Assembly: GCF_021300655.1 (NCBI RefSeq)
Contig: NZ_JAJTNB010000001.1
Span: 133,770 to 197,769 of the forward strand
Direction of reading: 5' to 3'
DNA: 64,000 nt
DNA from: Helicobacter kayseriensis
GTDB lineage: Bacteria; Campylobacterota; Campylobacteria; Campylobacterales; Helicobacteraceae
Made by a program: the position numbers and the translations under genes. The notes under the pieces were generated by a model, which was not told the DNA's origin, made no database searches, and saw only the letters and a list, made by a program, of their open reading frames with translations. Shown one piece after another: positions 45,212-46,323 of the stretch (its first letter is position 1; each line of letters begins with the position of its first letter).

Positions 45212-46323
45212 CTAAGTATACATAAAACAAATTCTATCTCTAATCATCTCTTTAGCCCTCTTTAATACAAAATAGATTTTTGGAAAGAAAAAGGCAATTT
45301 TTGAAGAAATCTCTACCTCTTTACAATATTTTTTATATTTCCAAATTTCCTCACACAGTTTTCTTCCTTTTTTCTGATCTTTTTTGATCTTACACATCCA
45401 AAATGCACCAATTGACCTATATTTAATTTGTTGCTCAATCCAATAGACACTCATTGGGTGTAGTTCTTTTTCTTTTCTCCTTAGAAAATCAATCATTTCA
45501 AGAACAAACACTGATCTTGAATAAGAAAAATCATACAAAAATTCTTCGCACTCTTTTGAAGAGAAGTTTTGACTACTTTCCTGAAGCTCGTATCTTGAAA
45601 GAGATCCGAATCGAATCCTATAATACACAAGAGGATGAGATACATAAACTATTCTTTGAGCAAGAGCAAGCATTTGATATCCAAATAAACTATCTTCGCC
45701 CAAAATATGTTTTTGAAATCTAAATTGATGCTTTAAGAGAAAAGAAAAATCAAGCAAATAAAGAAAAATCAAAATCCCATTCATCTTATTCAAGGCGAGA
45801 AACTCAAGAAATTCATACCCACAGTAGAACTCTTGTTTGGGAATATCCTCTATTCCAGCACATAAAGAAATCTTATGATTTTTTTCATAAAAAATCTTGT
45901 ATCCATGCCAAACTATATCCATACGCTTTCCAAATGTACTCTGTATACATCTCTCAATACACTCTAGATCCAACCAATCATCACCATCAAGAAAGTGAAT
46001 ATATTGGACTTCTTTGCACCTAGAATGCTCAAAGATCTCTATCTCCCCCCCCCCCCCACATTCTGCATCGCAAGATAATCAAGGGCTAGATTTCTTGATG
46101 CCCCTACTCCTTGATTTTGTTTGTTTTTTATCAAAGTCATTCTTGTATCCTGCTTGAAATAAGCATATGCAATTTCAAAGCTATTGTCTGTGCTTGCATC
46201 ATCAATTAAAATGATTTGCAAATCCCTATATGTCTGCCCAATCACAGAATCAAGGCATTCTTGAAGATATTTCTCTACATTATAAATTGGAACAATAATC
46301 GCAACAACTGGATTAGAGTGCAT
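45212..46323 (-). pseudogene. Phase-variable family 2 glycosyltransferase, currently frameshifted (OFF) at a poly-G(13) tract
   Basis: The N-terminal ORF 46039-46323 (MHSNPVVAIIVPIYNVEKYLQECLDSVIGQTY...GGGGR*) and the C-terminal ORF 45212-45973 are 1 nt out of frame across the tract at 46045-46057. Translating the C-terminal frame straight after the tract gives EIEIFEHSRCKEVQYIHFLDGDDWLDLECIERC, which aligns with YIHFLDSDDYLEPHCIEKC of the intact paralogue. Confidence 0.8.
46045..46057. repeat. Poly-C(13) (poly-G on the coding strand) splitting the GT2 gene
   Basis: Counted directly. A full-length reading frame is restored at 11 or 14 repeats. Confidence 0.9.

Follow-up and report, generated by a model that had tools for sequence, protein, structure and literature searches.

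A simple-sequence-repeat contingency locus, in which a poly-G tract within the frame of a GT2-family glycosyltransferase gene would switch a surface-sugar function ON and OFF, is very probably present in Helicobacter kayseriensis. The gene lies on the minus strand of a 64,000-nucleotide (nt) stretch, hereafter the window (RefSeq assembly GCF_021300655.1, contig NZ_JAJTNB010000001.1, positions 133,770 to 197,769 of the forward strand), at window positions 45212-46323, and is frameshifted at a run of 13 G. A preliminary description of this DNA, made from the letters alone, had proposed a slipped-strand contingency switch on a glycosyltransferase. That proposal is supported by the tract itself, by the frame logic, by the GT2 identity of the encoded protein, and by the conservation of the tract at differing lengths among relatives.

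The G13 tract and the reading frames of the GT2 gene

The tract appears as C13 on the plus strand, that is, as G13 on the coding minus strand, and begins at gene nucleotide 267, inside the GT2 frame. Across it the minus strand reads ATG CAG AAT GTG GGG GGG GGG GGG AGA TAG, and at this length a stop codon two codons past the tract closes a product of 94 amino acids (aa). The preliminary description had placed G13 at 46045-46057 between a 94-aa and a 253-aa open reading frame (ORF), and both the coordinates and the lengths are exact. It had also located a DxD region straight after the tract in the C-terminal frame, which is found as DGDD at 45977-45988, within the peptide IHFLDGDDWLDLECIERC that the restoring frame yields 3' of the tract. 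Its expectation that lengths of 11 or 14 would restore about 370 aa agrees with the frame arithmetic, which gives 369 and 370 aa, and the collinearity that it had reported with an intact paralogue at 37722-38849 extends through the site of the tract (37% identity over 237 aa, E 8e-44). At the aligned position, the paralogue is free of any G run.

When tract lengths of 8-17 were imposed in silico, single ORFs of 368, 369, 370 and 371 aa were obtained at G8, G11, G14 and G17, respectively, and all remaining lengths between 9 and 16 led to a stop at codons 93-98. The restoring frame contains no stops over 277 codons, while the frame in which the N-terminal ORF proceeds past the tract contains 15 or 29 stops in all at the other tract lengths. 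Since only the restoring frame is stop-free, the tract is the sole lesion in an otherwise intact gene. An ON-locked form with a recoded tract would read GGAGGTGGCGGA.

The run is also exceptional in its length. G/C runs in the window are bimodally distributed: each added base lowers their number about 5-fold, until 10 runs of G5 and 13 of C6 remain, and above that decay only two runs of 6-9 are found (C7 and C9). The longest G/C runs measure 10, 11, 11, 11, 13 and 13 nt, all of them within 41.6-56.9 kb. Given this bimodality and a G+C content of 36%, the tract is not a chance run. With respect to the features that characterize contingency genes, G13 is an uninterrupted in-frame G/C homopolymer longer than 7-8 nt, changes of one repeat toggle in silico between full-length and truncated products of an otherwise intact gene, and the length at this one site is polymorphic among relatives (G13, G11 and G20; n = 3 loci).

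The same sequence bears on a leaky OFF state, in which RNA-polymerase slippage or a -1 ribosomal slip would produce some full-length enzyme and the tract would tune its level. A -1 shift (GGG GGG AGA TAG to ...G GAG ATA) re-pairs perfectly and enters the ON frame, and the 0-frame stop lies two codons past the run. However, the site is not followed by a stimulatory downstream structure, and known Campylobacter poly-G genes behave as genetic ON/OFF switches, which counts against leakage; we regard it as improbable.

Enzyme identity and predicted structure

The protein restored at G14 matches PF00535 (Glycos_transf_2) with 94.6 bits against a cut-off of 23.3 (E 8e-27) and carries both the DxD motif (DGDD, aa 113-116) and a downstream acidic motif (GED, aa 209-211), each kept across 60 homologues. 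D113 and D115 are invariant, and with D211 included the acidic positions are invariant or nearly so (alignments A1 and A3). A GT-A fold is predicted by an AlphaFold2 (AF2) model built from the 60-sequence alignment, with a predicted local distance difference test score (pLDDT) of 86.2 and a predicted template-modelling score (pTM) of 0.85. Profile score, motifs and predicted fold together place the protein in GT2, as had been proposed. No NCBIfam equivalog was found for the restored protein, the best scoring 90.5 bits against a cut-off of 423.

Among solved proteins, 5hea is the closest in sequence (E 2e-23, 24% identical), and it is also the top Foldseek match of the model (E 3.8e-19, TMt 0.82). 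RmlT, TarS and TarP follow, all with E values at or below 1e-13 as for 5hea, together with heparosan synthase. The 5HEA protein, named 'GalT1' or 'CgT' by its depositors, therefore shares both fold and sequence with the window GT2; it differs in lacking an insert of about 22 aa that contains the glycine run, and phase variation is not known for it. This insert comprises query residues 85-106 (AMQNVGGGGEIEIFEHSRCKEV) and falls between 5hea chain residues 83 and 86. In the AF2 model, the tract-encoded glycines (aa 90-93) lie in a coil (85-94) that follows helix 73-84, and a short strand (95-99) then precedes the DxD strand (108-111). Because the glycines are predicted to sit in a coil within an insert absent from 5hea, a variable number of them should be tolerated; a flexible glycine stretch in a lineage-specific surface loop would explain how 2, 3, 4 or 6 glycines can be accommodated when the gene is ON.

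When the gene is OFF, translation stops short of the DxD motif, and transferase activity is therefore impossible for the 94-aa product. The annotated C-terminal ORF (236 or 253 aa) was considered as a protein in its own right, a reading that was rejected: the nucleotide-binding half is missing entirely from either form, and the one of 236 aa is also devoid of the DxD motif. Concerning specificity, GT2 enzymes use UDP-, dTDP- or GDP-sugars as donors, not CMP-nonulosonates. In view of this preference, and of the nonulosonic-acid genes that surround the locus, the switched enzyme probably adds a hexose or N-acetylhexosamine (HexNAc) near the nonulosonate of the same glycan.

Conservation of the tract in relatives

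A Helicobacter kayseriensis "hypothetical protein" (P0001) matches the C-terminal ORF with 100% identity, and the 236-aa form of this ORF is deposited under two GenBank accessions, MCE3046685.1 and MCE3048013.1, which means that the gene is split in at least two deposited assemblies. Among 5.8 billion proteins, the sole close full-length relative is P0002 (374 aa, 50% identical). It is carried by Logan run ERR10093333 (L003), which is 97% identical to the window at the nucleotide level over 10 kb on the clpB side and 96.5-97% identical from legB onward, and which on this similarity appears to be another strain of H. kayseriensis. Its positional orthologue holds G11 at the same site in an intact 374-aa gene (ON), with the flanks ...AATGTGT-G11-AGGATAGAG... 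against ...AATGTG-G13-AGATAGAG... in the window.

A second orthologue was reached via the MptE-like gene on a metagenome scaffold from another Helicobacter species (L005; 71-77% nucleotide identity). Gene order there is as in the window, with legC, legB, the opposite-strand GT2, an MptE-like gene and, further on, clpB. The GT2 of this scaffold (382 aa, 45% identical over its full length) has G20 at the corresponding position (KTSEGGGGGGEHIQILEHS) and is intact and in frame, and the sequence immediately flanking the run has diverged from that of the window. A distant GT2 of H. japonicus (L004, 31% identity) holds G10 in the same pre-DxD insert. Non-repetitive sequence at this site in orthologues had been named beforehand as the outcome that would speak against a switch, and the opposite was found: G11 in L003, G20 in L005 and G10 in H. 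japonicus. A tract retained at one site while its length differs and its surroundings diverge is the signature of a selected contingency repeat. The comparison covers three orthologous loci, with the L005 length taken from a metagenome assembly. Beyond these, a scan of genome contigs with the restored protein returned two distant GT2s (31-33% identity) and no orthologue, two exact-DNA scans of metagenome contigs, for which the sequences on either side of the tract served as queries, gave 0 matches, and exact-product look-ups (P0001 and two window neighbours) returned no contigs, hence no independent assembly of the same strain that could be read.

As a separate observation, the H. japonicus GT2 is associated with two G10 tracts (2989-2998 and 3399-3408): besides the one in the pre-DxD loop, there is one 2 nt 5' of the ATG, in the position of a ribosome-binding site or 5' untranslated region (5'-UTR).

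The deposited and metagenomic sequences also inform on an assembly or sequencing artefact, with a true modal length of G14 (or G11) and the gene ON, in which case only the description "caught OFF" would be wrong. Homopolymers of at least 13 nt are miscalled by all platforms, and the ON state is a single base away from the assembled G13. Furthermore, two metagenome contigs from other samples (L007 and L008) begin directly after the tract homologous to that of L005, showing that assemblers struggle exactly there. The presence of the truncated 236-aa ORF under two accessions, with at least two assemblies broken, is a partial counterargument. We consider an artefact unlikely, though the most serious of the alternatives, and even if it were true the locus would still be a contingency tract.

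A pseudogene in the course of being lost, with the frameshift permanent in the lineage and the tract a relic, would account for a broken state common to two assemblies; moreover, the related locus L009 has no GT2, and the gene is thus dispensable. Against this, nothing but the tract breaks the gene: 277 codons downstream of it are stop-free, and the start codon, Shine-Dalgarno sequence, DxD and GED are intact. In addition, the AF2 model is confident through the whole catalytic domain, and an uninterrupted tract is kept at the same site in orthologues down to 45-50% amino acid identity. Gene loss is accordingly judged very improbable, slightly more so than leaky expression.

Proposed switching mechanism

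In the contingency-switch reading, slipped-strand mispairing at replication would add or remove G residues in the poly-G run, which encodes a short poly-glycine in a surface loop peculiar to the lineage; this loop separates the nucleotide-binding half from the DxD strand. Lengths of the form 3n+2 (8, 11, 14, 17 and 20) give the full enzyme, and at other lengths a stop just past the tract, before the DxD motif, leaves no active enzyme. The assembled G13 is OFF, and ON could be reached by inserting one G (G14) or deleting two (G11). Depending on the state of the tract, a surface glycoconjugate made with the neighbouring nonulosonic-acid genes would gain or lack one sugar, and mixed populations would be the outcome. 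Both slippage as the mechanism and its rate are extended to the window tract from Campylobacter jejuni cj1139 (wlaN), and by extrapolation from wlaN a G13 tract should be very unstable.

Several points weigh against this reading. Reversible switching and its rate in culture are what we infer from the tract, and transferase activity and the glycan target are predictions from profile, fold and neighbourhood. A 13-nt homopolymer is prone to assembly error, and its true mode may be 14 (ON). The two truncated accessions could reflect a stably OFF lineage, or just clonal isolates. Finally, just three orthologous loci were found, one of them with a metagenome-derived tract length.

Genomic context of the locus

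The GT2 gene belongs to a nonulosonic-acid (legionaminic-acid-type) biosynthesis and transfer island (Table 1). Divergent from it, a LegB-type dehydratase gene opens the nonulosonic-acid operon on the plus strand, which also encodes a LegC-family aminotransferase (TIGR04181, 505 bits against a cut-off of 420). Beyond legB, this strand carries a TylF-type methyltransferase, short-chain dehydrogenase, AMP-ligase and FkbH-domain proteins, two hexapeptide acyltransferases, a formyltransferase, a GNAT-family protein, an ATP-grasp enzyme, a NeuB-family nonulosonate synthase and another cytidylyltransferase. On the minus strand, the GT2 is followed on its 3' side by an MptE-like gene (PF01973, sub-threshold), two cytidylyltransferase-like ORFs and an HMGL-like ORF. 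No terminator-like site was detected on the minus strand from the GT2 to the downstream genes, in a promoter and terminator scan whose hits were fewer than those in shuffled sequence. The GT2 is presumably co-transcribed with the four genes downstream.

No waa, kps, fla/flagellar or full-length maf gene was seen in the window. The surroundings point to a nonulosonic-acid glycan, whose carrier may be lipopolysaccharide or lipooligosaccharide (LOS), capsule or flagellin. In addition to the GT2 tract, the 15-kb island contains seven G/C tracts of 9-13 nt.

Table 1. Coordinates of the GT2 locus and associated features in the window
Feature	Position	Strand	Evidence or remark
Complete GT2 glycosyltransferase gene, frameshifted at G13	45212..46323	-	Restored to 369 aa (G11) or 370 aa (G14)
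Homopolymeric G13 tract, encoding the Gly run of a loop	46045..46057	-	Same site: G11 in L003, G20 in L005
OFF-phase product, 94-aa N-terminal ORF ending ...MQNVGGGGR-stop	46039..46323	-	ORF list
C-terminal ORF, 253 aa	45212..45973	-	ORF list
C-terminal 277 codons with DxD, GED and helical C-terminal region	45212..46044	-	Open only in the G11/G14 frame
DGDD (DxD) metal and nucleotide-sugar binding motif, 3' of the tract	45977..45988	-	Lost when OFF
GAGGA Shine-Dalgarno sequence, 5 nt 5' of the ATG (46323)	46329..46333	-	Read from sequence
Intact GT2 paralogue, no tract, conserved between strains	37722..38849	-	Alignment, 37% over 237 aa, E 8e-44
LegB-type NAD-dependent 4,6-dehydratase, divergent from GT2, first gene of the nonulosonic-acid operon	46401..47414	+	TIGR04180, 495.9 bits vs 475
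Strain-conserved 5' module (start, tract, DxD)	45947..46323	-	~96.5% nt identical to L003
Strain-variable block, no DNA similarity to L003 (GT2 C-terminal part and four genes)	41635..45946	-	Strain comparison
MptE-like gene	44304..45170	-	In variable block
Cytidylyltransferase-like ORF	43200..44177	-	In variable block
Cytidylyltransferase-like ORF	42493..43203	-	In variable block
HMGL-like ORF	41658..42581	-	In variable block
C11 tract, 2 nt past the clpB stop (TAA-CT-C11), far edge of variable block	41631..41641		L003 7843-7849, C7

Mosaic architecture between strains

Comparison of the window with L003 reveals a sharp boundary within the GT2 gene. Nucleotide identity is about 96.5% from legB through the GT2 start, the tract and the DxD motif, and homology collapses after ...CIERC, at window position ~45947, about 95 nt 3' of the tract. 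At the protein level, identity is 90.5% in the N-terminal part and 31.6% in the C-terminal part. The variable block of the window extends over the C-terminal part and four further genes, and the corresponding L003 block consists of just a 0.76-kb alternative C-terminal part abutting clpB. Inter-strain homology ends exactly at the C11 tract next to clpB, which identifies this tract as a junction of the variable cassette. The C-terminal part of the window GT2 is somewhat closer to that of L005 (39%), which also has an MptE-like neighbour. In the Helicobacter locus L009 (4125-4274), legB directly faces the MptE-like gene with no GT2 between them, indicating that the phase-variable GT2 is an accessory gene of the island. 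Conversion from the paralogue was considered as a source of the N-terminal part and rejected, as the two N-terminal parts are only 53% identical.

From these two strains, the alignments suggest exchangeable acceptor-side modules behind a conserved switch module. A tentative extension, which we hold to be possible rather than probable, is that of a modular switch: a 5' module comprising promoter, donor-binding half, poly-G tract and DxD motif would be recombined onto interchangeable 3' modules. That of the window comes with a four-gene cassette, namely a putative MptE/Maf-type nonulosonate transferase, two cytidylyltransferase-like genes and an aldolase-like gene. If so, a single switch would control glycan branches that differ from strain to strain, with homopolymer tracts perhaps doubling as cassette junctions.

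Within this block, the similarity of the HMGL-like ORF to the aldolase profile is confined to the C-terminal half of the profile, and the ORF shares 89 nt with the cytidylyltransferase ORF upstream of it (42493-43203). Its L009 homologue has 516 aa, and the window copy may be truncated or frameshifted.

Relation to known phase-variable systems

The closest functional parallel is provided by wlaN (cj1139c) and cgtB, phase-variable LOS beta-1,3-galactosyltransferase genes of C. jejuni. Like the window gene, these encode GT2-type enzymes and contain a poly-G tract within their first third to half, and in all of them tract length decides between ON and a truncated OFF product. For wlaN, G8 is ON and G6 and G9 are OFF, with G5, G10 and G11 also present among isolates (PMC7142995). 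Mutability rose 10-fold when the wlaN tract was extended from G8 to G11, and the changes became biased toward deletions (PMC3401435). The window GT2 differs in its longer tract (11-20 nt in the window and its orthologues, compared with modal lengths of 8-9) and in its location, a nonulosonic-acid island adjoining clpB, whereas wlaN and cgtB lie in the LOS core locus. Orthology to wlaN/cgtB was rejected in view of the legB/legC-type and clpB neighbours and of a closest named Campylobacter match of just 29% (P0022). By analogy, the window GT2 would work like wlaN without being its orthologue.

The island as a whole resembles the flagellin O-glycosylation island of C. jejuni (cj1295, maf genes) in its clustered G/C tracts. 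Many such tracts are described at this pseudaminic/legionaminic-type sugar locus (PMC3068675, PMC13130089). The parallel extends to the gene content of the window, with LegB, LegC, a NeuB-type synthase, cytidylyltransferases, and acyl-, formyl- and methyltransferases. The switched gene differs, being a GT2 in the window and a Maf or DUF2920-type protein in the C. jejuni island.

Within the same genus, the phase-variable lipopolysaccharide (LPS) glycosyltransferases of H. pylori offer a further example of homopolymer-mediated variation of surface glycans. The H. pylori futA, futB and futC genes carry poly-C tracts; their products belong to families GT10 and GT11, unlike the window GT2. In addition, hp0102 of H. 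pylori is described as G-repeat-controlled (PMC8295292). The hp0102 repeat acts in the mRNA leader through a small RNA (sRNA), in contrast to the window tract, which would act by frameshift.

This kind of switch has long been known in Campylobacter and Helicobacter, and the window GT2 adds one in a newly described species. A literature search on phase variation in H. kayseriensis found no reports. For this recently named avian (bird-gut) enterohepatic Helicobacter, the locus provides an entry to the set of phase-variable genes, and it extends Campylobacter-style poly-G control of surface-sugar genes, in a legionaminic-acid-type island, to the H. kayseriensis lineage. It also offers a handle for finding the glycoconjugate that bears the sugars of the island. 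Current understanding is not overturned by the GT2 switch; the mosaic, which is preliminary and drawn from two strains only, is of interest in suggesting a route by which strains could diversify their glycans behind one retained switch.

Other homopolymeric tracts and neighbouring genes of the island

A second G13 tract on the minus strand (43494-43506) lies near the 3' end of the cytidylyltransferase-like ORF at 43200-44177. At G13 this ORF has 325 aa, including a 97-aa tail that runs into the next gene; at other tract lengths it would have about 231-237 aa, the usual size for cytidylyltransferases. The L009 homologue holds G12 at 5851-5862.

Elsewhere in the island, G11 (54992-55002) and G10 (55642-55651) lie near the 3' ends of tandem hexapeptide-repeat acyltransferase paralogues. 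Their flanks are nearly identical (aaaagagacaat-Gn-ataaac), and length changes touch only the last 0-15 residues. A C9 tract (56896-56904) lies inside a GNAT ORF (56574-57281; PseH-like, weak match) that is in frame at 235 aa, and which a change of +/-1 would split into about 108 and 125 aa. Another G11 (52704-52714) is located 94 nt 5' of an FkbH-domain gene (52808-54394) and closes a 113-codon open stretch, which no length change fuses to that gene. This G11 may belong to a promoter or 5'-UTR, or it may form the end of a short ORF.

The TylF-type methyltransferase gene (47365-48168) stands between legB and legC in the window and is absent from L003, where positions 5618 and 5613 are adjacent. 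Its L005 homologue adjoins clpB and contains a G17 tract (13356-13372).

L005 additionally carries a composite tract, C34-A-C15-A-C19, at 11417-11486. The same site reads C14 in L006 (5253-5266), at least C27 in L007 (5308-5334) and at least C25 in L008 (5301-5325), the latter two contigs ending inside the tract. Another shared tract measures C12 in L005 and L007 and C15 in L006 and L008. These differing lengths of shared tracts are direct evidence of tract-length polymorphism in the island among samples.
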